From: Candidatus Binataceae bacterium
GTDB lineage: Bacteria > Desulfobacterota > Binatia > Binatales > Binataceae
Assembly (NCBI GenBank): GCA_035308025.1
Contig: DATGHL010000045.1
Location: 56,014 to 120,013 of the forward strand
Direction of reading: 5' to 3'
Length of the DNA: 64,000 nucleotides
Below, piece by piece: positions 25,733-50,263 of the stretch; the first letter of the stretch is position 1, and every line of letters begins with the position of its first letter. A model generated the notes under the pieces. It saw only the letters and a list, made by a program, of their open reading frames with translations. It had not been told where the DNA came from and did not search any database. The position numbers and the translations under genes were made by a program.

Positions 25733-26242
25733 CTACGAGGCGTGGCCCTCGCTGCCGCTCACGAGCGTGGTCGGCTGGCCCGCCTGCTTCCACCCCTTGA
25801 TACCGTCGGCCATCACACTGACGTTTTCGTAGCCGGCTTTGACCGCCCGCCGGGCGGCCTCATGCGACGCCGTTCAAAGAGTGTTCGCGCAATAGAAGAC
25901 CAGCTTCGCCTTTTTGTCTTGCGGCAGTACGGCAAGGTCGTATTTGTTGTCGGAACTCAGCAGGGTTGCGGCCGGAATCACCCCATACTCTGCGCGCGTG
26001 GAGGCGCCGTTAGCGTCATAGATGTGCACCGGCGACTTGGTATCGTTCATCATCGCCTTCAAATCGGCGACGTGGATAATCGAGAAGGTTTCGAGCGTCG
26101 GATCGTTGTCTTCATGACCCAGCAGTTGCGAGAGATCGAACGCGCGCGCCGCCGGCGCGTAGTAACCGGCCGCCAGAATCGTGAGCGCGAAGGGCGCCGC
26201 CACCGTGAGTACACGGGCGAGTCCTCGTCTGATGATGCGCAT
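25733..26242 (-). CDS. exported rhodanese-domain sulfurtransferase with in-frame UGA (candidate selenocysteine) in the active-site loop
   Basis: ATG 26242 lies 9 nt after GGGAGG, giving the signal-like MRIIRRGLARVLTVAAPFALTILAAGYYAPAARA. The tracked ORF ends at TGA 25876-25874 after LVFYCANTL. The same frame continues as TASHEAARRAVKAGYENVSVMADGIKGWKQAGQPTTLVSGSEGHAS to TAG 25735-25733, which completes the rhodanese fold. Confidence 0.65.
25841..25859 (-). promoter_or_regulatory. SECIS-like hairpin downstream of the rhodanese UGA
   Basis: RNA GGCCGCCC-GGC-GGGCGGUC; 8 bp including one G-U. The stem starts at +15 after UGA and the loop sits at +23 to +25. Confidence 0.55.
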
Positions 26243-26448
26243 AAGAGCAGACCTCCCGATCGGAGCTATCACGGGCCGCACCGGCTGCCAAGCTGACTTT
26301 TCTAGCCGCGGGAGTCAGGTGCAGAAGCGCGGGCGTGAGGATTTGAGCAAAGCTGCCGAGCATGGCAGAGTTACGGGCGCAGCAGCTTTCCGTCTCGCGA
26401 CAAAAGGCGGAAGTTCCAGGCAAGCCATAAGGTTAGGACGCATGGAGC

Positions 26449-26970
26449 GTGGCGATGAGTGACGATTTCCGCTCGCGGGCAAAGAAGCTCCCGAAGGGCA
26501 ATCTGTTCGAGGATTTCACCCTCGGCCAAGTCTTTGCGCATCACTGGGGGCGCACTTTGAATCCGAGCGACAATGCCCTCTTCACAACCCTGACGCTGAG
26601 CTACAACCCGCTCTATTTCAACGCGCCGTATGCGCGCGCGCATGGCCATCGCCAACCGGTGGTGAATCCGATGCTGGTTTTTGCAACGGTTTTCGGACTT
26701 TCGGTCGAGGATCTCAGCGAGGCGGGCGGGCTGTTCCTGGGCGTCGATAGCCTGACGTTCCATCGACCGGTCTATCCTGGGGCGACGCTTATCGCGCGCA
26801 GCACGGTGGTCGATAAGCGGGAATCGGCGAGCCGTCCCGAACACGGGATCGTGAGCTGGCATACAGAGGGCTTTTTGATTGACGAACTTGGCAATAAGTC
26901 AGACGGTGAAATTCGCGTCGTCGATTTCCGCCGCTCCAACCTGATTCCGAAGCGAGGTCCGGGCGCATGA
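26449..26970 (+). CDS. MaoC-like (R)-hydratase, mesaconyl/itaconyl-CoA hydratase-like
   Basis: 173 aa (alternative ATG at 26455). FEDFTLGQVFAHHWGRTLNPSDNALFTTLTLSYNPLYFN is a hot-dog hydratase signature. ATGA overlap with the next gene. Confidence 0.65.
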   Translation: MAMSDDFRSRAKKLPKGNLFEDFTLGQVFAHHWGRTLNPSDNALFTTLTLSYNPLYFNAPYARAHGHRQPVVNPMLVFATVFGLSVEDLSEAGGLFLGVDSLTFHRPVYPGATLIARSTVVDKRESASRPEHGIVSWHTEGFLIDELGNKSDGEIRVVDFRRSNLIPKRGPGA

Positions 26971-28121
26971 GTTATATGACCGAAGAACGCAGCATGATTC
27001 AGGATGCGGCGCGCAACTTCGCCATGAACGAAGTTCTGCCGGTCGCCAACAAGCTCGACCCGGTCGAGGGCGACATCCCGATGGAGCTGCGCAACAAGAT
27101 GGGCGAGCTCGGCTACTTCGGCATCCTGATTCCCGAGGACTACGGCGGGCTGGGGCTCGGCTGCTTCGAGTACGCGCTGGTGGCCGAGGAGCTGGCGCGC
27201 GGCTGGATGAGCGTCGCGAGCATCATCGCGCGCGGCAACGGCATCTGGGGCGACATCACGGAGGAACAGAAAAAGCTGTATTTTCCGAAGATGGCGCGCG
27301 GCGAGTTCCTCGGCGCCTTCTCGCTCTCGGAGCCCGACGCCGGCTCGGACCTCGCCAACGTCTCGTGCCGCGCGACGCGCGACGGCGACGACTACGTCAT
27401 CAACGGCACCAAGACTTGGTGCACTTTTGCCGACGGCGCCGACTTCATCCATCTGTTTGCACGGACCTCGCCGCCCGAGGGCAAGCGCCGCCATGTCGGC
27501 ATCACGCAATTCATGATCGAGAAGGAGCGCGGCAAGCTGCCGCCCGGATGCAGCGGGACGCCGATCCGCAAGATCGGCTATTTCGGTTGGCGGACCTGGG
27601 AGCTGCACTTCGACAACTGCCGCATCCCGGCCACGACGATGCTCGGCGGCGAGGGCCGCGGCTTTTACACGATGATGGCGTTTCTCGAAGTCGCCCGCGT
27701 GCATACTGCGGCGCGGGCGATCGGGCTGGCGCGCGGCTCACTCGAGGACTCGCTGGTCTATGCGACCCGTCGCTCGCAGTTCAAACGGCCGATCGCGGAA
27801 TTCCAGGCGATTCGCTTCAAACTCGCCGAGATGGCGGCGAATATCGAGGCGGCGCGCGCATTGATGTACGCCGTCGCCAGCGACGTTGACAGCAAGAAAC
27901 GCTGTGACAAGGAAGCCTCGATGGTCAAGTGGTTCGCTACTGAGATGGCGGAGCGGGTGACCAGCGACGGTTTGCAGATTCACGGCGGCTACGGCTACAC
28001 CAAGGACCTCCCGCTCGAGCGCTACTGGCGGGACGCGCGGCTGACGAAAATCTTTGAGGGGACGTCGCAAATTCAACTGCGGATCATCTCGGATCGCCTG
28101 CTCGGAGGGATGCCCGAATGA
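26967..28121 (+). CDS. acyl-CoA dehydrogenase
   Basis: 384 aa; GAFSLSEPDAGSD, YVINGTKTWCT, FQAIRFKLAEM and LQIHGGYGYTKDLPLERYWRDARL. Confidence 0.8.
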   Translation: MSYMTEERSMIQDAARNFAMNEVLPVANKLDPVEGDIPMELRNKMGELGYFGILIPEDYGGLGLGCFEYALVAEELARGWMSVASIIARGNGIWGDITEEQKKLYFPKMARGEFLGAFSLSEPDAGSDLANVSCRATRDGDDYVINGTKTWCTFADGADFIHLFARTSPPEGKRRHVGITQFMIEKERGKLPPGCSGTPIRKIGYFGWRTWELHFDNCRIPATTMLGGEGRGFYTMMAFLEVARVHTAARAIGLARGSLEDSLVYATRRSQFKRPIAEFQAIRFKLAEMAANIEAARALMYAVASDVDSKKRCDKEASMVKWFATEMAERVTSDGLQIHGGYGYTKDLPLERYWRDARLTKIFEGTSQIQLRIISDRLLGGMPE

Positions 28122-28786
28122 GTATCGAGGCGGCCGCGCTGACGGCGCGCAATAATTACTTCGAGGATTTCAACCTCGGCGACGTTTTCGAACACGCTCG
28201 CGGCAAGACCGTCGAGGGACTCGAGAACGTGCTCATCACGAATCTCGTGCTCAACACCGCCCAGGCGCACTTCAACGAGCATCTGTCGGAGTCGCTGCCG
28301 CAAAAGCATCGGATCGTTTTCGGCGGCGTCACGGCGTCGATCGTGATTGGCCTTGCGATGCAGGATACGGGCGAGAACGCGGTCGAGGAGGTCGGGCTTG
28401 ATAAGGTGCGCTTCCGCGTCCCGGTCCTGCACGGCGATACGCTCTACGCGTTTACCGAAGTCGTTGCGAAAGAAGCAGAGCCCGCCGACGCGCGCGGTCA
28501 TCGCGAAGTCGGGCTGGTCCATTTCCGCCACTGGGGAGTGAATCAGCGCAATGAGACCGTCTTCGAGGGCGAACGCACGACGCTGATCAAAAAACGCTCG
28601 TTCACGACCGACGGACTCGCCCTCCACGACGAGGTGGCGATTGCAGCGCCGGTCACACGGCGGCGTCCGGCGGCGAAAGCGCAGCGGCGTGCGGTCAAGC
28701 GCGCGCTGCCCGCGGCGATCAAGGCGCCGCGCTCGTTGAAAGGCGTCAAATTCAGGCCAAAGAACCGGCCGAAAAAACGCCGCTAA
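28118..28786 (+). CDS. MaoC-like hydratase with about 60-aa Lys/Arg-rich C-terminal tail
   Basis: 222 aa; FEDFNLGDVFEHARGKTV hot-dog domain to about residue 160. The tail is PVTRRRPAAKAQRRAVKRALPAAIKAPRSLKGVKFRPKNRPKKRR. Codon-3 G/C bias persists through the tail. Confidence 0.65.
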   Translation: MSIEAAALTARNNYFEDFNLGDVFEHARGKTVEGLENVLITNLVLNTAQAHFNEHLSESLPQKHRIVFGGVTASIVIGLAMQDTGENAVEEVGLDKVRFRVPVLHGDTLYAFTEVVAKEAEPADARGHREVGLVHFRHWGVNQRNETVFEGERTTLIKKRSFTTDGLALHDEVAIAAPVTRRRPAAKAQRRAVKRALPAAIKAPRSLKGVKFRPKNRPKKRR

Positions 28787-28820
28787 CTTCCACGCTGACT
28801 TTCCCCACGGAGAACCTGCG

Positions 28821-29723
28821 ATGCGCTTACGCCGATGCGAGCTGTCGACCCCGGGCAGTAATGAAAAGATGATCGAAAAGGCACTCGGCTCGAACGCCGA
28901 CGTGGTTTTTCTCGATCTCGAAGACGCGGTCGCGCCCAACCAGAAGGTTGAGGCGCGCGGCAAAGTGATCAAAGCGCTCAAGACCCTCGACTGGGGCAGA
29001 AAAACTCGCGCCGTCCGCATGAACAATATCGAGACCGAGTACGCCTACCAGGACGTGATCGAAGTCGCCGAGAATGCGGGCGAGCAGCTCGACGTGATCA
29101 TCATTCCGAAGGTCAAGGCGGCGCGCGACATCTTCTGGGTCGATACCCTGCTGACGCAGATCGAGACGCGGCTCAAGCGCAAGCACAAGATCGCGCTCGA
29201 ATGCCTGATCGAGGAGGTCGAGGCGCTAATCAACGTCGAGGAGATCGCGAAATCGTCGCGACGGCTGGAGGCGATTATCTTCGGGCCGGGCGATTTCAGT
29301 GCTTCGCAGGGCGTGCGGATGGGAAAGACTATCGGCGGCTCGATCACGACCTACCCGGGCGACATCTGGCACTACGCGCGCAGCAAGATCGTCGTCGCGG
29401 CGCGCGCCGCCGGCATCGAAGCGATCGACGGCCCCTATGCGGACTTCAAGAACCCGGCGGGCTATCGCGAGGAGGCGATCCGCTCGGCGACGATGGGTTT
29501 TGCGGGCAAGTGGGCGATCCATCCGAGCCAGATTGAATTAGCCAACGAGATGTTCTCGCCATCGCAAGAAGAGATCGATCGCGCGCGCCAGCTCGAAGCC
29601 GCTTACGCCAAGGCCGAAGCCGAGGGCCTCGGCGCGGTCACCTTCGACGGCGTGATGATCGACGCCGCCTCAGTGCGGATCATCCGCAACGTAATCGACA
29701 AGGCGAACCTGATCGGGCTCTGA
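28821..29723 (+). CDS. HpcH/CitE-family acyl-CoA lyase, L-malyl-CoA/beta-methylmalyl-CoA lyase-like
   Basis: 300 aa; RCELSTPGSNEKMIEKA, VFLDLEDAVAP, IIFGPGDFSAS, DGPYADFKN and GKWAIHPSQIELAN resemble Mcl/citramalyl-CoA lyases. Confidence 0.65.
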   Translation: MRLRRCELSTPGSNEKMIEKALGSNADVVFLDLEDAVAPNQKVEARGKVIKALKTLDWGRKTRAVRMNNIETEYAYQDVIEVAENAGEQLDVIIIPKVKAARDIFWVDTLLTQIETRLKRKHKIALECLIEEVEALINVEEIAKSSRRLEAIIFGPGDFSASQGVRMGKTIGGSITTYPGDIWHYARSKIVVAARAAGIEAIDGPYADFKNPAGYREEAIRSATMGFAGKWAIHPSQIELANEMFSPSQEEIDRARQLEAAYAKAEAEGLGAVTFDGVMIDAASVRIIRNVIDKANLIGL

Positions 29724-29762
29724 GCAGCGCGAGGTCAGAGAGTCTCGGCACCGCGCCCATCA

Positions 29763-31121
29763 TCACGCTTCCAGGGCATACGCATTCTCTTCGTGTTCGC
29801 TGAGGTCGAGGCCAAGTTGCTCGGCTTCGGCGTCCACGCGCAAACCGACCAAGGCGTCGGTGATCTTGAGCAGGATCAGGCTACCGCCAAAGGCAAACAA
29901 GACGCTCGCGGCGACCGCCACAACCTGAATCAGGAATTGGTGCGGATTACCATAAAAGAGCCCGTTGGCGCCCGCAGAATTGACCGCGACGTTGGCGAAG
30001 AGCCCCGTTGCCAGCGCACCCCAAATCCCGCCTACTCCATGCACTCCGACAACGTCCAGCGCGTCGTCGTAGAAAAACCACGACTTTATCCTCACAGCGC
30101 CATAGCAGAGCGCTCCGGCTATCAGGCCGATAACGATCGCGGACATCGGCCCAACAAAGCCGGAGCCGGGCGTAATTGCGACCAAACCAGCTACGGCCCC
30201 GCTCGCGGCTCCCAACACAGTCGGCTTGCCGGAAAGCCACCATTCCACGCAGATCCATGATAGCGTCGCCGCCGCTGCCCCAAGGTTGGTTGCGACAAAG
30301 GCGGAAACCGCCAGACCGTTGGCGGCAAGCGCACTGCCGGCATTGAAGCCGAACCATCCGACCCAAAGCAGCCCGGCCCCGGTTAAGGTCATCGTCAAAT
30401 TGTTTGGGTGGACCGGCTCATGCGGATAGCCGCGGCGGCGTCCGATCATCAGAACCGCGGCGAGCGCGGAAACGCCGGACGAGATGTGGACGACGGTGCC
30501 ACCCGCAAAATCGAGCGCGCCGAGTTGATGCAGCCAGCCGTCAACCGCCCACACCCAATGCGCGAGCGGGTCATATATCAGAGTGGTCCAGAGCATGCTG
30601 AAAACCACAAACCCTTTGAAAGAAATCCGCTCGGCGAAGGCCCCGGTGATCAGCGCCGGCGTAATTACAGCGAACATGCACTGAAACACCATGTAGGCCT
30701 GATGTGGAATCGTTGGCGCATACCAAGGATAAGCTTGGGTTGCGCTGACGTTCGCCAGACTCGCCCACTGCAGGCCGCCGATAAGCCCGTGCCAGGGCGA
30801 GAAGGCCAGGCTGTAGCCGAACAGCGCCCACTGCACCGAGATCAAGGCGACCAGAAAAAAGCTTTGCATGAGTGTGGCGAGGACGTTCTTGCGCCGCACC
30901 ATGCCGGCATAAAACAGCGCCAGTCCCGGCGCTGTCATCATCAGGACGAAGGCCGAAGAGGTCAGCACCCAGGCCGTGTCGCCGGCGCTGATCGACGCGA
31001 CCTGATCGGCGGCCCCGGCCGAAACGACAAAAAGCAGCGTGGTTGCGCTCACGGCGGCGACGGCGGTTACGAGTAGGGTGATTCGCGAACGCAGGCTCTT
31101 TTTTGATCTCGACATGGGCAA
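29763..31121 (-). CDS. amt: ammonium transporter
   Basis: 452 aa; DTAWVLTSSAFVLMMTAPGLALFYAGMVRRKN, FAGGTVVHISSG and DDALDVVGVHGVGGIWG are Amt signatures. No glnK is adjacent. Confidence 0.85.
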   Translation of the reverse strand: MPMSRSKKSLRSRITLLVTAVAAVSATTLLFVVSAGAADQVASISAGDTAWVLTSSAFVLMMTAPGLALFYAGMVRRKNVLATLMQSFFLVALISVQWALFGYSLAFSPWHGLIGGLQWASLANVSATQAYPWYAPTIPHQAYMVFQCMFAVITPALITGAFAERISFKGFVVFSMLWTTLIYDPLAHWVWAVDGWLHQLGALDFAGGTVVHISSGVSALAAVLMIGRRRGYPHEPVHPNNLTMTLTGAGLLWVGWFGFNAGSALAANGLAVSAFVATNLGAAAATLSWICVEWWLSGKPTVLGAASGAVAGLVAITPGSGFVGPMSAIVIGLIAGALCYGAVRIKSWFFYDDALDVVGVHGVGGIWGALATGLFANVAVNSAGANGLFYGNPHQFLIQVVAVAASVLFAFGGSLILLKITDALVGLRVDAEAEQLGLDLSEHEENAYALEA

Positions 31122-31269
31122 GGAAGGTATATTCAGCTTGGGAGCCGCTCAAGCAGTGCGCGGTTCGTTTGCGGCTCGCAGGCTGCTCGGCTTTCGAGCA
31201 GTTCGCAAATGTGCTCAAAGATTAGAACGCGATTCAACGAGGCGCGCGCAGCGCTATGAGGCTTTGACG

Positions 31270-32070
31270 ATGAGCAACGCGAAGAGCGAAAACCCGGTAT
31301 TGGTCGAGCACGAGGCGCCCCTCGGCTGGATCGTTATCAACCGTCCGGAGAAGCGCAACGCGCTGAACTTCGCGGCCTGGCGCGGCATCGTCGCGGCGAC
31401 GGAAGAACTCAACGCCGATCCGGCCGTGCGCGTGATCATCATGCGCGGCGTGTCGCGCGAGGCCTTTATCTCGGGCGCGGACATCTCCGAGTTCCCGAGT
31501 CATCGGGCAAACGCCGAGCAGGCGCGCAGCTATCGTTCGGCGCCGGGCAACGCCACCGACGCTTTGAGCCACAGCGCGAAGCCGGTGGTCGCGATGATCG
31601 CGGGCATCTGCATGGGCGGCGGACTACAAGTCGCGCTCTCCTGCGATATTCGCATCGCGGCGCGGGGGACGCGCTTCGGGATTCCGGCGGCGCGGCTGGG
31701 GCTCGCCTATCCGCTCGACGGCGTGCGCACGCTGTCGCAAATCGCGGGTCCCGCGAACGCCCGCGATATCCTCATGTCGGCGCGGACCTTCGGCGCCGAA
31801 GAGGCGCTCCAGATGGGGCTGCTCAATCGGCTGGTCGAGCCGGAAGAGCTCGAAGCGAACGTCCGCGATTACGCAACGCGCATGGCCGCCAACGCCCCGC
31901 TCACCATGGCCGCGGCGAAGGCGACGATTCGCGAAGGGTTGAAGGACGCCATTGATCAGGACCAGCAGAAGATCGCCGCGATGGTCGCGCGATGCTTCGA
32001 CAGCGAGGACTATAAGGAAGGCGTCCGCGCATTCCTCGAGAAGCGACCGCCACGCTTTTGCGGACGCTAG
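31270..32070 (+). CDS. enoyl-CoA hydratase/isomerase (crotonase) family
   Basis: I prefer ATG 31270 (MSNAKSENPVLVEHEAPLGWIVINRPEKRNALN), 266 aa. The oxyanion-hole region is ISGADISEF / GICMGGGLQVAL. Confidence 0.8.
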   Translation: MSNAKSENPVLVEHEAPLGWIVINRPEKRNALNFAAWRGIVAATEELNADPAVRVIIMRGVSREAFISGADISEFPSHRANAEQARSYRSAPGNATDALSHSAKPVVAMIAGICMGGGLQVALSCDIRIAARGTRFGIPAARLGLAYPLDGVRTLSQIAGPANARDILMSARTFGAEEALQMGLLNRLVEPEELEANVRDYATRMAANAPLTMAAAKATIREGLKDAIDQDQQKIAAMVARCFDSEDYKEGVRAFLEKRPPRFCGR

Positions 32071-32199
32071 TGGAGCCGGGGGGCGGCGGAGTCTGCGACG
32101 CGCGTAAAGGTCGATTGCCGCGCGGAGCGCGCAGGCGAGTTTTGATCGAGGCCGCGGCTCGCGGACTCGCCCGCCCCCTGGACCTGCGTCAAGATTCTT
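32068..32199 (+). repeat. dispersed GC-rich intergenic repeat, composite copy F (inverted pair)
   Basis: Starts with the TAG stop of the crotonase gene (CTAGTGGAGC). Imperfect inverted arms GGGGGCGGCGGAGTCTGCGACGCGCG and GCGGCTCGCGGACTCGCCCGCCCCC. Ends CTGCGTCAAGATTCTT, 35 nt before the P450 start. Confidence 0.75.
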
Positions 32200-32233
32200 A
32201 ATTAGTGAATTGCGGCAACGCCGGTCGAGGAAA

Positions 32234-33418
32234 ATGAGCGAACAGATTTACTTCAATCCGTGGGACGAGGGCTTCCGCGCCAATCCCTATCCGCACTACC
32301 AGGCCTTCATCGGACGGCCGCCGCAGCTCTTGAACATGTTCTTTCCGATCGCGCTGATCGGCAGCTATGCCGATGCCGTCGCGATCCTGCACGATCCCGC
32401 ACGCTTTTCGAGCGACGTGCGTCCGCTAGATCGCGTCGAGGTCTTCGGTGACGCGCCGCGGCTGCTCTTCGCCGATCCGCCGACCCATACGCGACTGCGC
32501 AAGCTGGTCAGTCGCGCCTTCACGCCGCGGCGGATCAGCGACCTCGAGCCCAAGATTCGCGAATTTACCGCCCACCTGCTCGAGCACGCCGCGGCCAAGG
32601 GTGAATTCGAACTGATGGCGGACCTCGCGGTGCCGCTGCCCGTGATGGTGATCGCGGAGATGCTCGGCGTACCGCCGGCCGACTATGAAAAGTTCAAGAC
32701 CTGGTCTGACGCGATCATCGATTCTGATAATACTCTGCCCGGGACGCCGCTGCCGCCCGTCGTGGCCGAGGCGTTTGCCGCACTGCGACATTTTTTCATC
32801 GGCGAGATCGCCAAGCGACGCCAGCGTCCGGGTCCCGATCTGGTCAGTGCGCTGGTGGCGGCGCGCGACGAGAGTGACGCGCTGAGCGAAGAGGAACTGA
32901 TCGCCTTCGTGATTCTGCTGTTGCTGGCGGGCAATGAAACCACGACCAACCTGATCGGCAACGGCATGCTCGCCCTGATGCGCCATCCCGAACAAATTGA
33001 GCGCTTGCGCGTCGATCCGAGCCTGACGCCGCGCGCGATCGAGGAGATGTTGCGTTACGATCCGCCGGCGCAGTCCGTAGTGCGCATCACGAAAGAGGAC
33101 GTCGTGATCAACGGCGTCGAGATCAAGGCGGACTCCGCAGTCTTTGTCGTGGTGGCCGCGGCGAATCGCGATCCGGCGCACTTCGCCAATCCAGAGACGT
33201 TCGACATTACGCGGCATCCGAATGACCATCTGGCGTTCGGCGACGGCATTCATTTCTGCCTGGGCGCAGCGCTGGCGCGATTGGAGGGCACGATCGCATT
33301 TACCGCGATGCTCGCGCGCTTCCCGCACTTAAGCCCGCTCGATGCCGCCCTCGAGCCGAAATACAAGGGCTCATATTTTCTGCGCGGACTCGCCGACTTG
33401 CGCGTCGCGATCGCCTGA
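32234..33418 (+). CDS. cytochrome P450
   Basis: I prefer ATG 32234, after GAGGAAA. Heme-binding FGDGIHFCLGAALARLE, EEMLRY (ExxR) and LLLAGNETT (I-helix). Confidence 0.9.
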   Translation: MSEQIYFNPWDEGFRANPYPHYQAFIGRPPQLLNMFFPIALIGSYADAVAILHDPARFSSDVRPLDRVEVFGDAPRLLFADPPTHTRLRKLVSRAFTPRRISDLEPKIREFTAHLLEHAAAKGEFELMADLAVPLPVMVIAEMLGVPPADYEKFKTWSDAIIDSDNTLPGTPLPPVVAEAFAALRHFFIGEIAKRRQRPGPDLVSALVAARDESDALSEEELIAFVILLLLAGNETTTNLIGNGMLALMRHPEQIERLRVDPSLTPRAIEEMLRYDPPAQSVVRITKEDVVINGVEIKADSAVFVVVAAANRDPAHFANPETFDITRHPNDHLAFGDGIHFCLGAALARLEGTIAFTAMLARFPHLSPLDAALEPKYKGSYFLRGLADLRVAIA

Positions 33419-33432
33419 AAGCCCACCCCCGG

Positions 33433-34758: not shown

Positions 34759-34787
34759 TCGAACATGAAGCCGTTGAGCTTGTTTCG

Positions 34788-35261: not shown

Positions 35262-35381
35262 TTCCCCGTTTGTTCGCCACGGACGATGAGACTTCCCCGC
35301 GCTGGCAGCCAATTGATATAGTCCGCGCCTGCGTCGTATCCTGACGCGGCATTTCACTTTGCGGGTATCCGGGTTTAAGCG

Positions 35382-36932: not shown

Positions 36933-36951
36933 CGAAAGCCGCCAAGAAGTA

Positions 36952-38497: not shown

Positions 38498-38530
38498 ATG
38501 CGGTACATCGCAACCCCACGAATAATTTGA
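38498..38530 (+). other. orphan duplicate of the BCCP gene start (10-codon remnant)
   Basis: CTGATGCGGTACATCGCAACC (38495-38515) versus CTGATGCGGTACGTTGCTACC (41392-41412). Each is preceded by GTGAAA. The remnant reads MRYIATPRII-stop. Confidence 0.6.
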
Positions 38531-38615
38531 TACCAACAAGACGGCTCGAGCGAATTAAATCAACTTCGAGCAGGAGTGCGCTCGACTGTTAATAGGGTTC
38601 AGTGAGTCGCGGCGG

Positions 38616-40145: not shown

Positions 40146-40309
40146 AACGTGGAGAAGTACAGAACGACTCAGAAAACACGTTGCTTTGATTAAACTAAAA
40201 CCGATGGAGGCAAGATGGCACACTTCCCGACAGATACCGGTGCTGATCCGCGAGCCCGTCGACTAGGGCGGTTAAGGAAGTTGCCCTACCGGACAGGCGG
40301 GAGAAAAAG

Positions 40310-41341: not shown

Positions 41342-41394
41342 CCGCAATCTCGGGCGCTAACTCCACGCGGGCGGTGAAAAGTGAAGAATCCCTG

Positions 41395-41895
41395 ATGCGG
41401 TACGTTGCTACCATCGATGGCGCTGAGCACGAGCTCGAGATCGAAGAGGTGACCGGGCATTCGCTCAGGATCACCTTGGGCGATAGTCAGTTCGAGGCCG
41501 ACGTGCGCCGCGCCGGCCATTCCGCTTTTTCGATCATCGTCGGCGATCGCGCCTTCGACCTCGAGGTGTCGCGCCAGGCCGACGAACTGGTGGTCGGTGC
41601 GCGCGGGATCGCGACGCGAGTCACGCTGCAGGACACCGCGCGGCGCGCACGGCGCGCCTCCACGCGCGAGCACGCCGGCGGCCGCGTGGAACTCAAGGCT
41701 ATGATGCCCGGCCGAGTCGTCAATCTGTTGGTCAAGGTCGGCGACGACGTCGTCGCTCAGCAGGGCGTGGTAGTGGTCGAAGCGATGAAGATGGAAAATG
41801 AACTCAAGTCGCCCAAGGCCGGCAAAGTGACGGAGATTAAAGTCGCGGCCGGCCAGACCGTCGAAAAGGGCGAGTTACTTTTGATCATCGAATAG
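41395..41895 (+). CDS. biotin carboxyl carrier / biotinyl-domain protein
   Basis: ATG 41395 (the tracked GTG 41374 is also possible). C-terminal biotinylation motif VVVEAMKMENELKSPKAGKV. Confidence 0.75.
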   Translation: MRYVATIDGAEHELEIEEVTGHSLRITLGDSQFEADVRRAGHSAFSIIVGDRAFDLEVSRQADELVVGARGIATRVTLQDTARRARRASTREHAGGRVELKAMMPGRVVNLLVKVGDDVVAQQGVVVVEAMKMENELKSPKAGKVTEIKVAAGQTVEKGELLLIIE

Positions 41896-41904
41896 GCGAT
41901 CATC

Positions 41905-43578: not shown

Positions 43579-43677
43579 GTGAAATTTGCCGTGGTGCTCC
43601 GGATGACGCTTTATTCCGAGCCGTTGGTCTGAAACTATTGATGCAACATTCGGTGAAGGGCGGGGTACAGCGAATCG

Positions 43678-44241
43678 ATGGGGCCACTACCAAAAGGGGT
43701 TTTTCTCACCAAGGGCGTCGGACGGCATCGCGAAAAGCTCACGGCGTTCGAGCTGTCGCTGCGCTCGGCGGGTATCGCCGAGTACAACCTGGTCCGCGTC
43801 AAATCGATCTTCCCGCCCAACTGCAAGCTGATTGCGCCCGAAGAAGGCCGGCGTTACCTGACCCCAGGGCAGATCGTTTTCGCCGTGATGAGCGACAATG
43901 CGATCGACGAGCCGCATCGCCTGATCGCCGCCTCGGTCGGGGTCGCTATCCCAGCGAATCCGGCCCATTACGGCTACCTCTCCGAGCATCACAGTTACGG
44001 TGAGCCCGAGCAGAAGGCAGGCGACTACGCGGAAGATTTGGCCGCGATGATGCTCGCAACGATCCTCGGCGTCGATTTCGATCCCAATTCAAGCTACGAC
44101 GAGCGCAAGGATGTCTGGCGGGTGTCCGACAAGATCGTCAAGACCCGTAACGTCACGCAATCCGCGATTGGCGATCGCGACGGGCTGTGGACCTCCGTAG
44201 TCGCCGCCGCGGTTTTCGTCGATCTGCCCAACGGGAAATAG
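43678..44241 (+). CDS. pdaD: pyruvoyl-dependent arginine decarboxylase
   Basis: 187 aa; FLTKGVGRHREKLTAFELSLRSAGIAEYNLVRVKSIFPP parallels the PdaD/AaxB self-cleavage region. Confidence 0.65.
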   Translation: MGPLPKGVFLTKGVGRHREKLTAFELSLRSAGIAEYNLVRVKSIFPPNCKLIAPEEGRRYLTPGQIVFAVMSDNAIDEPHRLIAASVGVAIPANPAHYGYLSEHHSYGEPEQKAGDYAEDLAAMMLATILGVDFDPNSSYDERKDVWRVSDKIVKTRNVTQSAIGDRDGLWTSVVAAAVFVDLPNGK

Positions 44242-44280
44242 GATGCCGGACGGGCGCAACGAAAGCTGCGAAGTACTGCG

Positions 44281-44310
44281 TTGACATAAGTTCGGTGCGA
44301 CGGCTATTTG
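44281..44310 (+). promoter_or_regulatory. candidate sigma-70 promoter for the SelW-like gene
   Basis: Perfect -35 TTGACA (44281-44286), 18 nt, then TATTTG (44305-44310), about 35 nt upstream of ATG 44344. Confidence 0.3.
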
Positions 44311-44343
44311 AGTCGTGATGCGGGCCGTATTACTCTTAAGAAT

Positions 44344-44577
44344 ATGGCCACCGAAATCCTCTACTGCGTACCGTGAGGCTACGAAGCTCGGGCGGCCAGT
44401 CTGGCCGCGTCGCTCAAATCGCAATTCGGCGAAGACGTTCAAATCCGGCCCGGCAAGACCGGACAGTTTGACGTTATTACCGACGGTAAGAAGATCTTCT
44501 CCAAGGCCGATACTGGGCGCTTCCCGCTGGAAGACGAAGTGGAAGCGAAGTTCGGCGCTCTTCAGTCCCGCAGGTAA
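44344..44577 (+). CDS. SelW/Rdx-family selenoprotein (CxxU)
   Basis: Missed by the ORF track. ATG 44344 gives MATEILYCVP-U(TGA 44374-44376)-GYEARAASLAASLKSQFGEDVQIRPGKTGQFDVITDGKKIFSKADTGRFPLEDEVEAKFGALQSRR-TAA. This is the classical Rdx layout: beta1-CxxU-helix, then G.FeV..dG..ifSK...g.FP. Confidence 0.8.
44392..44408 (+). promoter_or_regulatory. SECIS-like hairpin downstream of the SelW-like UGA
   Basis: RNA GCGGCCA-GUC-UGGCCGC; a perfect 7-bp stem starting at +16 after UGA, with the loop at +23 to +25. Confidence 0.65.
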
Positions 44578-44906
44578 CCTTTAATTTCACCTCGCCCGAG
44601 CCTTGACCCCGGAGTGCTTGGCTGGTTAGCATTGGCACATTCTATGCTTTAGCATCATAGGATGGTAGCTGACGACCAACCTTGTTTTACCGACGCTTCT
44701 AGGCCAGATCGGCGACCATTAGTGAGGTCGGGTGACTAAAACGGTTGTTGTGGATAACCTCCCGCCTTATCCTATGCTCTGGCTTGTATTTACCTACGCT
44801 AGGTTATATTCACGGAAAATCTGGTGCGATCGTAGGCGGAAATGTTACAATGATGTTACAGGGCTAACTCACCGAAATGGCGGCCTGACTGAAAGGGATA
44901 ATAGGC

Positions 44907-45728
44907 ATGAGCAGCGCTTCAAACCTCAATTTCCTCAACCTCATTCAGGAACTGAAAGTCTTTGGCGAATTCGCGAAATTCGCAGGCAATGCCTGGACTT
45001 GGCCACTTGGCCGCCGCAGCAAGCATCCCCGCGTCATTCTACTAATCCCCGGCTTCCTGGCGGGTGACGCGACGCTCTATCCTTTCGCCAACTGGCTGCG
45101 CTCGCAGGGCCATCGAGTCTTCTTCTCGGGCATTCTGGCAAATATCGATTGTCCGCGTCGGGCCATGGATCGGCTCGGACGCATTCTGCAGGGATTGTAT
45201 GACCGTCACGATGAGAAATTAGTGGTGATTGGCCACAGCCTCGGCGGGGTCTACGCGCGGGAATTGGCGCGGCGGGCGCCCGATCAAGTCGAACAGACGA
45301 TCCTGCTCGCGTCGCCGGTCGGCAAGGTCGGGGAGCGGACGAACCCGTTCGTCCACATGCTCGCGACCTTCACGATGAAGTCGCAGGAATTTATGCGCGG
45401 ATGTTCGGGTGATCTACGCGATGTGTGCGGCGTACATTCGCCGACGCCGCCGCCGAACGTCCCCGAAGCGATCATCTTCTCGAAAGCCGACGGCGTGGTG
45501 GACTGGAGCAGTTGCCTGGAATCGGGTCCGAACGTTGAGGCCTTCGAAGTGAACGCAACCCATTGCGGCCTGCCCTACAATCTCGACACGCTGCGTATCG
45601 TGCACGATCTGATCGAGAATGGGCAGACGCCTCGCGAGCGCAAGGCGCGCGGCGGCAAAGCCTCGGTCAACAGCAAAGTGCCGTCTATTGGCAGCAGACA
45701 CGCCAACGGCGCAGCAGCCGCCTCTTAG
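44907..45728 (+). CDS. alpha/beta hydrolase, lipase/esterase-like
   Basis: 273 aa; GHSLGG nucleophile elbow and LLIPGFLAGD. Preceded by a 330-nt AT-rich spacer. Confidence 0.65.
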   Translation: MSSASNLNFLNLIQELKVFGEFAKFAGNAWTWPLGRRSKHPRVILLIPGFLAGDATLYPFANWLRSQGHRVFFSGILANIDCPRRAMDRLGRILQGLYDRHDEKLVVIGHSLGGVYARELARRAPDQVEQTILLASPVGKVGERTNPFVHMLATFTMKSQEFMRGCSGDLRDVCGVHSPTPPPNVPEAIIFSKADGVVDWSSCLESGPNVEAFEVNATHCGLPYNLDTLRIVHDLIENGQTPRERKARGGKASVNSKVPSIGSRHANGAAAAS

Positions 45729-45760
45729 CAGGCGGTTGAAAAAAAACTTCAACTGGAAGG

Positions 45761-45875
45761 TTGACGCAGCTCGCGGACCGCTAACCTCGGCCGCGCGCGT
45801 CGCGGACTCGTTTCCCGCGATGCAGCTCGCGGACTCGTCTCCCCCGACGCAGCTCGCGGACTCGCCTGCGCTACA
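45761..45875 (-). repeat. dispersed GC-rich repeat, locus E (four tandem core copies)
   Basis: TTGACGCAGCTCGCGGACCG (45761), GCGTCGCGGACTCG (45797), GATGCAGCTCGCGGACTCG (45819) and GACGCAGCTCGCGGACTCGCCTGCG (45846). Confidence 0.75.
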
Positions 45876-46012
45876 CTTCGTTCAACCGCGACTTCTCACA
45901 CAGAATCATCCCTACTTTTGATTCGCTGTTACAGGCCACTAAGTCGTTTGGACAGAACGCAGTGGTAGCCTCTCTCTTGGTTGTGTTCCGCTTCGCTAAC
46001 CTGGTGTCTCTG

Positions 46013-46897
46013 CTAGCGTAGCGCACGATTGCGTTCGACCACCGGAGTGAAGCGCTTGATCAGATCGAGCGCATGGCCGTCGGCGGTGGCGGCGACGGTT
46101 TGCTGCGAGAGCAGGACGATGCGTTCGCAGCCGGCGTCGCGCCACCACTTGAGGTCTTCGGTGGAGGGGCCGTGCTCCTGCGGATCGACCAGCGGCGAGA
46201 TGTGGACCGCGTTTTCGTCGCGGCCTTGCTCCCTGAGGAGCTTGCGCAGCGTGGCGACGTCGCGCTTGAGCTCGGCCGGGTCCTGGATGAGCGGCATCCA
46301 GCCGTCGTAGCTGCGGGCGACGCGTTCAAGCGCCTTGGGGCCGTGCGCGCCGAGAATTACCGGCGGGCCGGGCTGCTGCACGGGCCGCGGCTCGCAGCGC
46401 AGGTTCTCAAAGCGCACCAACTCTCCGGCATAAGAGGCAGTGCCCTGGCTCCAGAGCGCGCGCATCGCTTCGATACCCTCGCGCGTGCGCTTCCAGCGTG
46501 TGCCGAACTTCGCGCCCATCGCTTCGGTTTCTTCGCGCAACCAGCCGGCGCCGATCCCAAAGAGGAAACGGCCGCCGGAAAGGAGGTCGAGGCTGGCGAC
46601 GGTTTTCGCGGTGATCAGAGTCTCGCGCTCGGGAATCAAGCAGATGCCTGTGCCGAGCTTGATCTTTTTAGTGACTGCCGCGGCGGCAGCGAGGCCGACA
46701 AAGGGGTCGGCCCAGCGGCCATAGTGTTCCGGCAGCTTGCCGTTGTCGGTGAAGGGGAAGATTGTTTTCATCGCGGCGGGAATTACCGGATGCTCGGGAA
46801 TCCAGAGCGAATCAAAACCGGCGGCCTCGGTTGCGCGCGCGATCTCCGCGATATCGCCGCCCCGCGCCGTCATCGCCGCCAAAAAACCTATTTCCAT
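46013..46897 (-). CDS. LLM-class F420-dependent oxidoreductase
   Basis: 294 aa; AGFDSLWIPEHP, SLDLLSGGRFLFGIGAGW and GPPVILGAHGPKALERVAR. Confidence 0.75.
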   Translation of the reverse strand: MEIGFLAAMTARGGDIAEIARATEAAGFDSLWIPEHPVIPAAMKTIFPFTDNGKLPEHYGRWADPFVGLAAAAAVTKKIKLGTGICLIPERETLITAKTVASLDLLSGGRFLFGIGAGWLREETEAMGAKFGTRWKRTREGIEAMRALWSQGTASYAGELVRFENLRCEPRPVQQPGPPVILGAHGPKALERVARSYDGWMPLIQDPAELKRDVATLRKLLREQGRDENAVHISPLVDPQEHGPSTEDLKWWRDAGCERIVLLSQQTVAATADGHALDLIKRFTPVVERNRALR

Positions 46898-47064
46898 TTT
46901 CGGTTTCTCTCCTGATGTTGAGTGTTAACCCGCTCGTCTTCTCCGCGTACCGATATATTGATCGGATTTGCAAGGGTGCAGCCGGCAACGAGGAGAATAA
47001 TCGCGCAACCCATGCGTAACGTACAAGGGCCTCAGCGTCGGCGAGATCGCGGCGCGAGCTAACG

Positions 47065-47162
47065 AAGAATCTTGACGCAGCTCGCGGACTCCTGACGTAG
47101 GCCGCGCGTCGCAGACTCCGCCCCCCGTGCGCGCTTTGCGCTGCTGCCGCGCTCCGCTAGCG
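47065..47162 (-). repeat. dispersed GC-rich repeat, copy D
   Basis: AAGAATCTTGACGCAGCTCGCGGACTC ... GGCCGCGCGTCGCAGACTCCGCCCCCC ... GCCGCGCTCCGCTAGCG. It combines both modules of the family, in reverse orientation. Confidence 0.8.
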
Positions 47163-47244
47163 TTGGGCGCGCGTATGCGCTTATGCTCGACGTGGCCGGC
47201 GGTTTCCGGATTAAAACCGGACGCCTGGCGAAGAGGAGGAGTGC

Positions 47245-47487
47245 ATGTCGATCATTGGTTGGATAATTCTTGGACTCATCTCGGGCTTTATCGCGAGTAA
47301 AATCGTGAACAAGAGCGGCGAAGGGTTGGTGCGCGATATATTGTTAGGCGTGGTGGGCGCGCTGGTGGGCGGCTTTCTGTTCACCCATTTGGGCGCAGCC
47401 GGCGTCTCGGGCGTAAATCTATACAGTATGTTCGTCTCAGTGATCGGCGCGATCATCGTACTGGTGGCGTATCACGCTATCGTCTAG
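47245..47487 (+). CDS. GlsB/YeaQ/YmgE-family stress membrane protein
   Basis: 80 aa; IIGWIILGLISGFIASKIV, DILLGVVGALVGGFLF. Confidence 0.7.
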   Translation: MSIIGWIILGLISGFIASKIVNKSGEGLVRDILLGVVGALVGGFLFTHLGAAGVSGVNLYSMFVSVIGAIIVLVAYHAIV

Positions 47488-47498
47488 GAGATCGGACA

Positions 47499-47696
47499 GT
47501 GACGCTGATTAATATCGTAGTCGTGCTGCTTGTGATTGGCGTTTTGCTCTGGCTGATCAATACGTACGTGCCGATGGCGGGCGGCATCAAGACGCTGCTC
47601 AACCTGGTGGTTTTCCTGGTCGTCTTGATATGGCTGCTGCAATTATTCGGGCTGATCGGGAATATTCCAGGGGTTCACATTCCGCGCTTGATGTAA
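47499..47696 (+). CDS. small two-TM membrane protein (Thivi_2564-like)
   Basis: 65 aa; GTG after GGAGAT; MTLINIVVVLLVIGVLLWLINTYVPM...VVFLVVLIWLLQLFGL. Confidence 0.5.
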   Translation: MTLINIVVVLLVIGVLLWLINTYVPMAGGIKTLLNLVVFLVVLIWLLQLFGLIGNIPGVHIPRLM

Positions 47697-47737
47697 AAGT
47701 ATCGGGCTGCGCGGACGAGTGCGGTGTGGAGGGATTT

Positions 47738-48511
47738 ATGGCAATCCGACTTCGGCAAATCTGTTTGGTTGCAGCGCAGCTTGCGCCAACGCTCACCGAC
47801 TTCAAGGAAATCTTCGGTCTTGAGGTTTGTTTTGTTGATCCGGCGGTCGCGGCGTTCGACCTCGAGAATTCGCTGATGGCGGTCGGCAGCAACTTCATCG
47901 AAGTAGTGGCGCCGATCAAGGAAAACACCGCCGCCGGCCGCTACCTCAAGCGGCGTAACGGCGATGGCGGCTACATGGTTATCTGCCAATGCGACTCGCA
48001 TGAAACTCAGGCCGCGCGGAAAGCCCGCGCCGCGGCGATGAATATTCGCGTCGCCTGGGAGCATGAGTCGTCGAGCTTCCACGCCATGCAACTCCATCCG
48101 GCGGACACCGGCGGAGCATTCTTCGAGATCGATTGGGATAAGCGCAACCAGCCCGAGGGGCACTGGGAGCCCGCAGGCGGCGACGGCTGGAGCGCGTCGC
48201 GAAACAAACCTTTGGTCAGCCACTATACCGCGGTTGAGTTACAGTCGGCCGACCCGCGCGGACTGGCCGAGCGCTGGAGCAGTATCGTCGAGACGCCTTT
48301 GCACGAGGACGCTCGCGGCCGCTTCGAGCTCCCATTCGATAACGCTAGCGTGCGTTTTGTCGAGGCGCGCGATGGCCGGGGCGAAGGGCTCAGCGGGATC
48401 GATATTGTGACAAGCGATCGCAAGCACGTGATCGCGGCGGCAGAGCGCCGCGGATATCGCACCGCGGACGATCAGGTGACTATCTGCGGCACGCGTTTTT
48501 ATCTGGCGTAA
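47738..48511 (+). CDS. VOC/glyoxalase-like domain protein
   Basis: I prefer ATG 47738 (MAIRLRQICLVAAQLAPTLTDFKEIFGL), 257 aa; FIEVVAPIKENTAAGRYLKRRNGDGGYMV. Confidence 0.55.
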   Translation: MAIRLRQICLVAAQLAPTLTDFKEIFGLEVCFVDPAVAAFDLENSLMAVGSNFIEVVAPIKENTAAGRYLKRRNGDGGYMVICQCDSHETQAARKARAAAMNIRVAWEHESSSFHAMQLHPADTGGAFFEIDWDKRNQPEGHWEPAGGDGWSASRNKPLVSHYTAVELQSADPRGLAERWSSIVETPLHEDARGRFELPFDNASVRFVEARDGRGEGLSGIDIVTSDRKHVIAAAERRGYRTADDQVTICGTRFYLA

Positions 48512-48536
48512 TACTCAGGAAAGCATTGGAAAACTG

Positions 48537-49640
48537 ATGAAAGCATTGATCGTAGGCGGCACCGGACCGACCGGTCCATTTCTGGCGCACGGACTGATCC
48601 AGCGGGGCTACAAGGTCACGATTTTCCATCGCGGCACGCACGAGATTCCGGAGATTCCGCCGGAGGTTAATCATCTGCACGGCGATCCGCATTTTCGCGA
48701 GACGATTGAGAGCGTGGTAGGAAATCGCACCTACGACGTGGTGATTGCGACGTACGGGCGGATTCGTTTCGTGGCGGAGGCTTTGGCAGGCAAGACCGCC
48801 TGCTTTATCGCGATCGGAGGGGTGCCGAGCTATCGCGGCTATTTCGAGCCGTCGGCGAATTTCCCCTCCGGCTTGCTGGTCGGCATGCCGGAAGACGCGC
48901 CGCTGGTCGCGAGCGAGCAGGAGCATCGTTTTTCGTGGCTGATCAAAAGCACCGAGGATGCGGTGCTGAAGGTTCATCCGAACGGCGTGGTCTATCGCTA
49001 CCCGTATGTGTATGGGCCGTATCAACTGATCCCGCGCGAATGGTGCATCATCCGGCGGATTCTCGACGGGCGGCGCGAGATTCTGATTCCGGACGGCGGG
49101 CTCTCGCTGATGACGCACGGCTACGCGGAAAATCTGGCGCACGCGGTGCTGCTGGCGGTCGATCAGCCGAAAGTGGCGGCTGGGCAGATCTATAATTGCG
49201 GCGACGAACAGCAGCTCTCGTTGCGGCAGGTGGTCGAGGTGATCGCACGCGAGCTGGGGCGCGAGCTCGAGGTGGTCAGTATTCCGGATTCGTTCGGGAC
49301 GTCGGCGCGTTCGATTTCGATCGGGGGCAGCGTGAACCATCGGGTGATGGATCTGTTCAAGATCAAGACGCAACTCGGCTATCGCGATCTGATTCCGGCG
49401 GTGCAGGCGATTGCGAAGACCTCGCAATGGTACGTCGCCAATCGGCCGGAGCGCGGCGGCGAGATCGAGCAGCGGCTGCAGGATCCATTCGATTACGCTG
49501 CGGAAGACAAGATCATCGCGATCCTGCGCGAAGCCGGGCGGCAAGCCGCGGCGGTCGCGACGCATACGATTGTGCCGACGCCCCATCCGTATCCCCATCC
49601 GAAAGAGCCGAACCTGGAACGCGATCATCGCAATCGCTGA
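48537..49640 (+). CDS. NAD-dependent epimerase/dehydratase (extended SDR)
   Basis: 367 aa; N-terminal MKALIVGGTGPTGPFLAHGLIQRGYKVTIFHRG. Confidence 0.7.
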   Translation: MKALIVGGTGPTGPFLAHGLIQRGYKVTIFHRGTHEIPEIPPEVNHLHGDPHFRETIESVVGNRTYDVVIATYGRIRFVAEALAGKTACFIAIGGVPSYRGYFEPSANFPSGLLVGMPEDAPLVASEQEHRFSWLIKSTEDAVLKVHPNGVVYRYPYVYGPYQLIPREWCIIRRILDGRREILIPDGGLSLMTHGYAENLAHAVLLAVDQPKVAAGQIYNCGDEQQLSLRQVVEVIARELGRELEVVSIPDSFGTSARSISIGGSVNHRVMDLFKIKTQLGYRDLIPAVQAIAKTSQWYVANRPERGGEIEQRLQDPFDYAAEDKIIAILREAGRQAAAVATHTIVPTPHPYPHPKEPNLERDHRNR

Positions 49641-49714
49641 GCGGCGGTCATCGGACGTTGGTCTTTGACAAGCAGTTGGTCACGAATCACAGCATCCGAG
49701 GGGAGGAAAGGAAG

Positions 49715-50263
49715 ATGGCCCAAGTCAGTCTGATCCCGTTTCCGCAGGTTGCTCCCGAACTTCAGGAGATCATGAGGACTTACGACAAGGAATATGCGGG
49801 TTCGGAATTTGTCCGTGCATTCGCGCATGCCCCAGAGGTCTTCAAGTCCTTCGCAAGCTACTACTTTCCGCTCATCTTCGAGACCCGCGGTAGTCTCGAT
49901 ATGCGGTTGACCGAGATGGTGCGGCTCAAGGTGGCGGAGAAGAACGACTGCGCGCTTTGAATGAACGGGCGTGTCGCCTTGGCAAGGCGACAAGGGCTGA
50001 CCGAAGAACAAATCGCGGAGTTGCGTAATTTTCGCGAGAGCAAGATTCTGACCGCGCCGGAGAAGGCCGCGGTCTGGTACGCGGAAGTGCTCGCTGGCGA
50101 TCACACACAGGCATCCGAAGCGTTATTTGATGAATTGCGCCGACATTTCACGGAGACCGAGATTATCGACCTGGGATTTCGCATCACCGCGTTCGTTGGG
50201 TATGGGCGCCTGATCCGCGCGCTCGGACTGGAACGGGGAGGAGTCTGCCCGCTGCCGGGTTGA
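49715..50263 (+). CDS. AhpD/carboxymuconolactone-decarboxylase-like selenoprotein (CxxU)
   Basis: ATG 49715 after GGGAGGAAAGGAAG. 81 codons lead to KVAEKNDCAL, then TGA 49958-49960. The tracked ORF 49961-50263 follows directly in the same frame (MNGRVALARRQGLTEEQIAELRNF...). The joined 182-residue product has the CMD-domain layout, with the TGA at the second Cys of CxxC. Confidence 0.75.
49973..49991 (+). promoter_or_regulatory. SECIS-like hairpin downstream of the AhpD-like UGA
   Basis: RNA GUCGCCUU-GGC-AAGGCGAC; a perfect 8-bp stem starting at +13 after UGA, with the loop at +21 to +23. Confidence 0.65.

Follow-up and report, generated by a model that had tools for sequence, protein, structure and literature searches.

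Three in-frame UGA codons with minimal SECIS-type hairpins in a soil Binatia contig probably mark mis-annotated members of known selenoprotein families

Are three in-frame TGA codons in the genome of an uncultured soil bacterium read as stop codons, or are they decoded as selenocysteine (Sec)? The question was raised by a contig of the class Binatia (Binataceae-like; DATGHL010000045.1 of assembly GCA_035308025.1), of which the stretch from 56,014 to 120,013, with a length of 64,000 nucleotides and a G+C content of 62%, was analysed as a whole and is called the window below. The three TGAs lie within a rhodanese gene, a SelW-like gene and an AhpD-like gene, which are separate transcription units and, as was said in the original prediction for this DNA, include no formate dehydrogenase. 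Coding sequence, as judged by coding potential, was found on both sides of all three TGAs, each of which replaces a redox cysteine, and each TGA is followed by a hairpin that resembles a selenocysteine insertion sequence (SECIS). From the common geometry of these hairpins the original prediction had derived a SECIS template specific to the lineage and a genome rich in selenoproteins. Based on the analysis described here, the three UGAs are considered, with a probability of about 0.9, to be Sec codons with SECIS hairpins that serve ordinary bacterial Sec decoding. The features in question are as follows, with offsets numbered from the first base after the TGA (+1).

25733..26242, minus strand: putative rhodanese-domain selenoprotein gene, read-through translation of 169 codons including Sec, plus stop
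25874..25876, minus strand: putative Sec codon (UGA) within the rhodanese gene, in frame and flanked on either side by strong coding potential
25841..25859, minus strand: predicted SECIS hairpin of the rhodanese gene, GGCCGCCC-GGC-GGGCGGUC, stem from +15, loop +23 to +25
44344..44577, plus strand: putative SelW/Rdx-family selenoprotein gene, 77 codons including Sec, motif YC-VP-U
44374..44376, plus strand: putative Sec codon (UGA) of the SelW-like gene, at the CxxU position
44392..44408, plus strand: predicted SECIS hairpin of the SelW-like gene, GCGGCCA-GUC-UGGCCGC, stem from +16, loop +23 to +25
49715..50263, plus strand: putative AhpD/carboxymuconolactone-decarboxylase-family selenoprotein gene, 182 codons including Sec, motif C-AL-U
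49958..49960, plus strand: putative Sec codon (UGA) of the AhpD-like gene, at the second Cys position of CxxC
49972..49992, plus strand: predicted SECIS hairpin of the AhpD-like gene, U-GUCGCCUU-GGC-AAGGCGAC-A, 9 bp with the outer U-A pair; the 8-bp stem (49973-49991) starts from +13, loop +21 to +23

The positions, offsets and loops of the three hairpins, as originally predicted, were confirmed by exact string location and translation, and each hairpin string has a single exact occurrence in the window. The stems had been described as short and perfect GC stems. They are indeed fully complementary and GC-rich but not pure GC, since the rhodanese stem (8 bp) contains one G.U pair, the SelW stem (7 bp) one A-U pair and the AhpD stem (8-9 bp) two U-A pairs. 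At all three sites the hairpin begins 12-15 nt 3' of the in-frame TGA.

For the domain searches of the three proteins, Sec (U) was replaced by C, and in NCBIfam the best matches of the three were (seleno)protein models. The read-through product of the rhodanese gene, ...LVFYCANTL-U-TASHEAARRAVKAGY..., has the active-site loop FYC118-ANTL-U123 and was matched by Pfam Rhodanese over residues 59-154, across the TGA (E=5.5e-10, 40 bits against a gathering threshold of 22.2). Its top NCBIfam match was the rhodanese domain of TsoB (E=1.3e-12), and it stayed under the NCBIfam cut-offs of NF041203 (32 bits, cut-off 115) and NF045694 (46.6 bits, cut-off 805). In an alignment with rhodaneses of solved structure, C118 falls on the catalytic Cys, and U123 takes the place of the Arg by which the C-x4-R loop is closed; given these positions, the Sec is best seen as the resolving partner of the catalytic Cys118, with which it would probably form a selenenylsulfide. 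The N-terminal signal peptide includes an RR pair that is conserved and the cleavage motif A-x-A, and suggests that the protein is exported or secreted. The SelW-like product, MATEILYCVP-U-GYEARAASLAASLK..., has the motif YC-VP-U-GY with CxxU at residues 8-11, was matched by Pfam Rdx (SelW/SelT/SelH fold; E=3e-17) and passes TIGR02174 CXXU_selWTH (55.1 bits, cut-off 34.2). The AhpD-like product, ...KVAEKNDCAL-U-MNGRVALARRQGL..., was matched by Pfam CMD (AhpD-type fold) with E=6e-12 and 45.8 bits (gathering threshold 23). It scored below the NCBIfam cut-offs of the YciW-related family NF053654 (58.1 bits, cut-off 310) and the peroxidase-related family TIGR01926 (46.1 bits, cut-off 81.8), and by these scores it is related to both families and a member of neither.

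In all three families the UGA stands in frame at a Cys position, and both the UGA and the reading frame downstream of it are conserved among relatives. The comparison covered the DNA of six distinct Sec forms and four distinct Cys forms of the rhodanese, 80 related metagenome loci for SelW (pairing was scored on 65 distinct sequences), and 80 loci from one-per-species GTDB genomes for AhpD, with covariation calculated from 30 distinct sequences and 500 shuffles. Furthermore, the hairpins show either covariation or frozen synonymous sites, and these are tied to the presence of the UGA. The strength of this evidence differs from gene to gene.

The rhodanese family offers a direct contrast between Sec and Cys forms. 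Full-length Cys homologues read FYCANTL-C-TASHEAARRAV, i.e. C-ANTL-C, while other public proteins stop exactly at the TGA (FYCAN-x-x), and both kinds occur within Binataceae. At the DNA level TGA was found in all six of the truncated (Sec) forms, and TGC or TGT in the four Cys forms. The core GCCGCCC-G[G/U]C-GGGCGGU is identical in the six Sec forms, synonymous sites included (the codons GCC GCC CG[G/U] CGG GCG GUC are fixed), and the flanking synonymous sites vary. In the four Cys forms the same peptide, AARRAV, is specified by other synonymous codons, and the stem is broken in each form:

GCG GCC CGC CGG GCG GUA
GCG GCC AGG CGG GCG GUC
GCA GCU CGG CGC GCG GUC
GCC GCC CGG CGC GCG GUC

Since the same peptide is accompanied by a hairpin only in the UGA forms, no other result shows as cleanly that selection acts on the rhodanese hairpin as RNA. 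One Cys-form locus (L183) is separated from the Sec-form hairpin by one synonymous change (CGC vs CGG) and by TGT in place of TGA. Judged from its sequence it is a near 'pre-SECIS', and the step between Cys and Sec is small in this family. Within Binataceae, the exchange of Cys and Sec in the rhodanese may have required one TGY-to-TGA change together with one to three synonymous changes completing such a 'pre-SECIS'.

In the SelW family, TGA was found at the CxxU position in 76 of the 80 loci, the other four being left unresolved by the regular expression used. The hairpin GCGGCCA-GU[C/U]-UGGCCGC is nearly invariant across relatives, and 91% of the cells in the stem alignment are paired, against 28-44% with slid partners. 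The changes observed were several G.U replacements and one compensatory pair; what supports this stem is conservation, extending to synonymous sites, and not strong covariation. About one sequence in four has a GUU loop and the others have GUC, so the closing C of the loop is not required.

The AhpD family provides the covariation. TGA was found in 77 of the 80 loci and TGC in the remaining three, and these three TGC forms are without the hairpin. Full-length homologues of about 190 aa and roughly 60% identity have C-R-L-C where the window has C-A-L-U, and dozens of public AhpD fragments of about 100 aa start right after the TGA position. The nearest genomes with the gene are Candidatus Binatia/Binataceae metagenome-assembled genomes (MAGs), with 75-81% amino-acid identity. 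The codon that follows the TGA is ATG in the window and CTG, ATT, ATC, ATA, AAG, AGG, CAG or CGC elsewhere, and therefore re-initiation after a true stop is not a conserved alternative. The stem halves, all closed by a GGC loop, include the following:

GUCGCCUU/AAGGCGAC (window)
GUCGCUUU/AAAGCGAC
GUUGCUUU/AAAGCAAC
UUGCCUU/AAGGCAA
UCGCGCU/AGCGCGA
UUGCCCU/AGGGCAA
AUGCCUC/GAGGCAU (further paralogue)

Changes on both sides were seen in five of the eight pairs, and 92% of the cells are paired, compared with 40-59% when partners were slid. The covariation score was 0.325 vs 0.126 in the shuffles, none of which (0/500) reached the observed value. Two AhpD-like paralogues that lie far apart on the chromosome were found in at least 15 Binatia genomes (L005-L023 paired with L051-L077), and both have TGA and the GGC-triloop hairpin. 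The GGC triloop stands at +21 in all 65 AhpD loci of Binatia, 'delta' and allied MAGs. In all 12 TGA loci of Gammaproteobacteria/Pseudomonadota MAGs (L053, L056, L059, L064, L066, L068, L071, L072, L076, L078, L079 and L081) a tetraloop, GGUC, AGUU or AGGU, stands at +18; it is mostly GGUC, as in E. coli fdhF, and the hairpin lies 3 nt closer to the UGA. This split in loop type is a hint of differences between lineages, but it coincides with gene subfamily and phylogeny and is therefore not assignable to SelB specificity. A third AhpD-like Sec paralogue (HNACTL-U-RGAVYASAR) was also observed within about 0.6 kb of the first in three 'delta proteobacterium' MAGs (L027 +10834, L033 -9602, L042 +10880), with the hairpin AUGCCUC-GGC-GAGGCAU at the same +21 offset.

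The steps of Sec decoding are known from E. coli and Moorella. By analogy with them, the UGA in each of the three genes would stand in for one cysteine of a redox pair, and the GC-rich hairpin of 7-9 bp with its G[G/U]C triloop, located inside the coding sequence 12-15 nt after the UGA, would serve as the SECIS. SelB carrying Sec-tRNA(Sec) and GTP would bind the loop and the upper stem and place the tRNA at the ribosomal A site as the UGA arrives, in competition with release factor 2, and the UGA would be read as selenocysteine and not as a stop. Both SelB binding and the actual insertion of Sec are presumed here from the known systems. The expected products are a secreted rhodanese whose C-x4-R active-site loop has Sec as its sixth residue, a CxxU thiol oxidoreductase of the SelW/Rdx type, and a CxxU peroxidase-related protein of the AhpD/CMD type.

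Several observations weigh against this interpretation. As originally noted, selA, selB, selC and selD are all missing from the window, and neither SelA, SelB and SelD (tblastn with E. coli queries) nor tRNA(Sec) (ARAGORN) was detected in the window and 1.76 Mb of related loci; the machinery of the lineage is therefore inferred and not seen. Folding of the first 45 nt behind each UGA gave -16.8 to -20.3 kcal/mol, which corresponds to the 4th-16th percentile of the in-gene background, and the z-scores against dinucleotide shuffles are weak at two of the sites (-0.66 for the rhodanese and -0.84 for SelW) and -2.5 for AhpD. Folding energy was rejected as a discriminator, such values being unremarkable in DNA of this G+C content. 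Rfam families were matched neither over the window at gathering thresholds nor, at E<=10, at any of the three sites. Finally, compensatory changes are nearly lacking in the stems of the rhodanese and SelW, whose support is therefore conservation and not covariation.

The chance expectation of the pattern was calculated with a strict geometry, defined as a stem of at least 7 bp and a G-N-C triloop starting at +20 to +25. This geometry was derived from the same three sites that it describes, so independent evidence is needed beside the counts that follow. Perfect triloop hairpins with stems of 7 bp or more number about 100 per strand in the window, and 15-18 of these have a GNC loop. Among the 17,933 in-frame codons in the predicted genes, 25 (0.14%) are followed by the strict geometry, compared with 1.0% for any triloop, and it was found behind none of the 28 ordinary TGA stops of the window, the control that the original prediction had called for. 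Its other control, shuffled sequence, gave a similar picture: TGA followed by the strict pattern, in any frame and on both strands, occurs six times in the window vs 1.06 +/- 1.0 times in 100 dinucleotide shuffles, none of which reached six. Three of the six matches are the Sec sites. The others, TGAs at 46234 (plus strand) and at 27399 and 27402 (minus strand, with one shared hairpin), were rejected because they are antisense or out of frame to real genes, and they show the false-positive rate of the pattern alone. A loose SECIS descriptor (stem of at least 6 bp, loop of 3-8 nt, loop start at +12 to +35) was likewise discarded, as it is useless alone in GC-rich DNA and was matched after 25 of 63 ordinary stops. 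Taken together, the rare geometry, the conserved TGA and the selection on the hairpin in relatives bear out the statement that the three sites are hard to explain by chance or by nonsense mutations.

If the TGAs were nevertheless true stops, produced by nonsense mutations or by the splitting of genes, the hairpins would be by-products of Ala/Arg/Leu-rich helices with complementary GCN, CGN and CUN codons. The peptides encoded by the hairpins (AARRAV, AASLAA and VALARR) are indeed prone to palindromic DNA, the folding energy is not exceptional, public gene callers read the TGAs as stops, and an ATG follows the AhpD TGA in the window. However, the codon after the TGA is usually not a start codon in the orthologues, the TGA has been kept in dozens of genomes in which the downstream frame is conserved at the protein level, and every one of the products would, if truncated, be left with only half of its domain and of its redox motif. 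Furthermore, the rhodanese Cys forms with the identical peptide form no hairpin, and the compensatory changes in the AhpD stem also speak against this reading. True stops are thus considered very improbable. Even less probable are sequencing or assembly errors, or an alternative code with TGA read as Trp or Gly. W and G were in fact found at the Sec position of an AhpD homologue (P0006) and a SelW homologue (P0186), respectively, but these residues are best explained as code-4 and code-25 translation by the source pipelines. About 28 of the 63 other predicted genes of the window, well supported, end on an ordinary TGA stop, and therefore the genome uses the standard code. As for errors, the same sequence is present in independent JGI, ENA and Logan assemblies; the contig, a metagenomic one, matches JGI 3300027867 Ga0209167_10000065 and is present in three other assemblies.

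The question of a stronger reading is a different one, because it accepts Sec decoding and adds to it a SECIS template peculiar to Binatia (a GNC triloop, a stem of 7-8 bp and a fixed distance, with narrowed SelB specificity) together with an unusually large redox selenoproteome. As regards the template, those Sec genes of Binatia and 'delta' MAGs whose hairpin can be resolved (AhpD, the second AhpD paralogue, the rhodanese and SelW) carry G[G/U][C/U] triloops that start between +21 and +23, whereas the same AhpD family has tetraloops at +18 in Gammaproteobacteria, and in E. coli fdhF the stem is bulged and the GGUC loop begins at +19. However, the geometry is the minimal case, or core, of the published general consensus for bacterial SECIS (bSECIS) elements, and a GGC triloop is also the canonical (predicted) SECIS of a Synergistota selD (PMC13326102). 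The sample comprised no more than four gene families, among which the loop-type split coincides with gene subfamily, and the GUU of SelW orthologues means that the loop is not strictly GNC. A DsbA-like Sec gene of a related 'delta' MAG has a tetraloop as well: in this DsbA/thioredoxin-like gene (L042 +7045), YSDYL-U-PWC (UxxC) is followed by ACGCGACC-GUGC-GGUUGCGU, with the tetraloop at +22. A covariance model built from the AhpD SECIS recovered only its own site in the window (72.5 bits), and the rhodanese and SelW sites were not among its 29 matches at E<=10; what the three hairpins have in common is therefore shape and not sequence. The idea of a shared hairpin template holds in this limited sense, while its specificity to the lineage was not borne out.

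The large selenoproteome fared no better. In its favour are the three Sec genes within 64 kb, but these are not syntenic elsewhere, SelW and the rhodanese being missing from the 10 kb AhpD flanks in all 80 genome loci. No fourth Sec gene was found in the window from coding potential across TGAs and a scan of uncovered regions; other candidates were rejected because they were antisense to strong genes or represented ordinary gene boundaries. When loci L004-L083 (about 1.5 Mb) were scanned with the pattern plus coding potential and with coding potential alone, four further Sec genes from two families were detected outside the target gene, namely three copies of the adjacent AhpD paralogue in 'delta' MAGs and the DsbA-like gene, and a gammaproteobacterial locus additionally yielded one CFYUT gene related to AhpD. 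None of these extra genes lies in a Binatia-labelled locus, with the limit that the scans recover only two of the three Sec genes of the window and thus have limited sensitivity. The largest known selenoproteomes comprise 50-63 genes per genome (PMC13326102); three genes per 64 kb are a local density and are therefore not extrapolated to the genome. A selenoprotein-rich genome was thus not shown, and the combination of a Binatia-specific template with a large selenoproteome is regarded as unlikely.

Ordinary Sec decoding through SECIS hairpins of a general type agrees with the published rule. The consensus of the bSECISearch model (Zhang and Gladyshev 2005), in the form summarised in PMC13188914, has a loop of 3-9 nt, an upper stem of 4-16 bp, a minimum free energy (MFE) of -7.5 kcal/mol or lower, a G in the first two loop positions, mostly as G[G|U]N, and a distance of 16-37 nt between UGA and loop. 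The window hairpins, with the loops GGC, GUC and GGC, spacings of 22, 22 and 20 nt and -20.3, -17.8 and -17.9 kcal/mol per 45 nt, are within all these ranges and far below the MFE limit, so that the agreement with the known bacterial rule claimed in the original prediction holds for every numerical part of it. Selection linked to the UGA, which belongs to the same set of characters, was seen in all three hairpins (as covariation in AhpD, pairing in SelW and the Sec/Cys contrast in the rhodanese). Compared with the consensus, the window elements are of the simplest form, without bulge or internal loop and with the smallest loop allowed. The SECIS of E. coli fdhF is similar in its loop, which has G and then G/U about 20 nt after the UGA, and tethering by SelB is presumed to be alike. 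It has, however, a GGUC tetraloop at +19 to +22, a short upper stem with a bulged U and a long lower helix from the UGA, while the stems in the window are uninterrupted over 7-9 bp, carry triloops and start 2-4 nt further downstream.

The protein families are also known ones. In metagenomes, SelW-like and AhpD-like proteins belong to the selenoprotein families of highest abundance (PMC2398784). The SelW-like gene shares the N-terminal CxxU and the small Rdx fold with its family (PF10262, TIGR02174); it scored 72 bits against the Campylobacter-type equivalog NF041051 (cut-off 88) and otherwise shows no notable difference. The AhpD-like gene has the CMD fold and CxxU for CxxC like the AhpD/CMD CxxU selenoproteins (PF02627, TIGR01926, NF053654), and the AhpD-like family is already counted among the known prokaryotic selenoproteins. 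Because the protein is below all specific NCBIfam cut-offs, no curated equivalog covers its Binatia and gammaproteobacterial subfamily, which is wrongly annotated in the form of two fragments. For rhodanese-like selenoproteins five forms have been listed, UxxS, UxxG, CxU, UxxG and the UxxxxU of TsoB (PMC13188914). The window rhodanese resembles them in having Sec in or next to the active-site loop, and the spacing of UxxxxU in TsoB equals that of C118-x4-U123. It differs from the listed forms in that the catalytic Cys is kept and Sec is found only at the sixth loop position, and in being a stand-alone, single-domain protein with a signal peptide and not a DsbD fusion. The C-x4-U motif is absent from the five listed forms, and a full-text search for 'CxxxxU' gave no match; the stand-alone C-x4-U rhodanese may, from its sequence, represent an uncatalogued selenoprotein subfamily. 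SelB of Binatia may recognise only the minimal triloop SECIS, and this would explain why gammaproteobacterial members of the AhpD family have a GGUC tetraloop in a different place. Both of these modestly novel readings, an undescribed C-x4-U rhodanese subfamily and a SelB restricted to the minimal triloop, are put forward as tentative and are considered rather improbable.

Two further observations concern the surroundings of the rhodanese gene. Upstream and divergent from it, an operon of MaoC hydratase, acyl-CoA dehydrogenase, MaoC and HpcH-HpaI lyase genes (26449-29723, plus strand) is kept in Sec-form and Cys-form loci alike. Downstream, an oligopeptide transporter (OPT) gene (24295-25690, minus strand) is broken, with one open reading frame covering positions 1-95 of Pfam OPT and a second one, in another frame, covering positions 318-620. 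In orthologous loci the gene is intact and encodes about 600 aa, and the break reflects either the loss of an internal segment together with a frameshift near 25370, or a faulty assembly.

The three genes are best described as new and wrongly annotated Binatia representatives of selenoprotein families that are already known, with canonical minimal SECIS elements. Since the protein families and the hairpin rule were already known, the find itself is an ordinary one, and it leaves the understanding of Sec decoding unchanged. Its main value lies in annotation and in the Sec/Cys contrast of the rhodanese family. In the public gene calls on the contig (L001, locus 4281-4947 and 9755-10303) the SelW-like gene is uncalled and the AhpD-like gene is split into 81 aa and 100 aa, the public rhodanese protein (P0066) ends at the TGA with 122 aa, and the NCBI names of orthologues include 'hypothetical protein' and 'partial'; all three genes are wrongly handled in this contig and in dozens of Binatia genomes. 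Literature searches on Binatia, Binatota or Desulfobacterota_B with selenoproteins returned nothing relevant. The Sec/Cys pairs of the rhodanese are a clean natural example of how few changes lie between a Cys gene and a Sec gene, and the AhpD family is one of SECIS re-positioning between phyla. For Binatia, a widespread uncultured soil lineage, the corrected annotation adds the use of selenium to its physiology.

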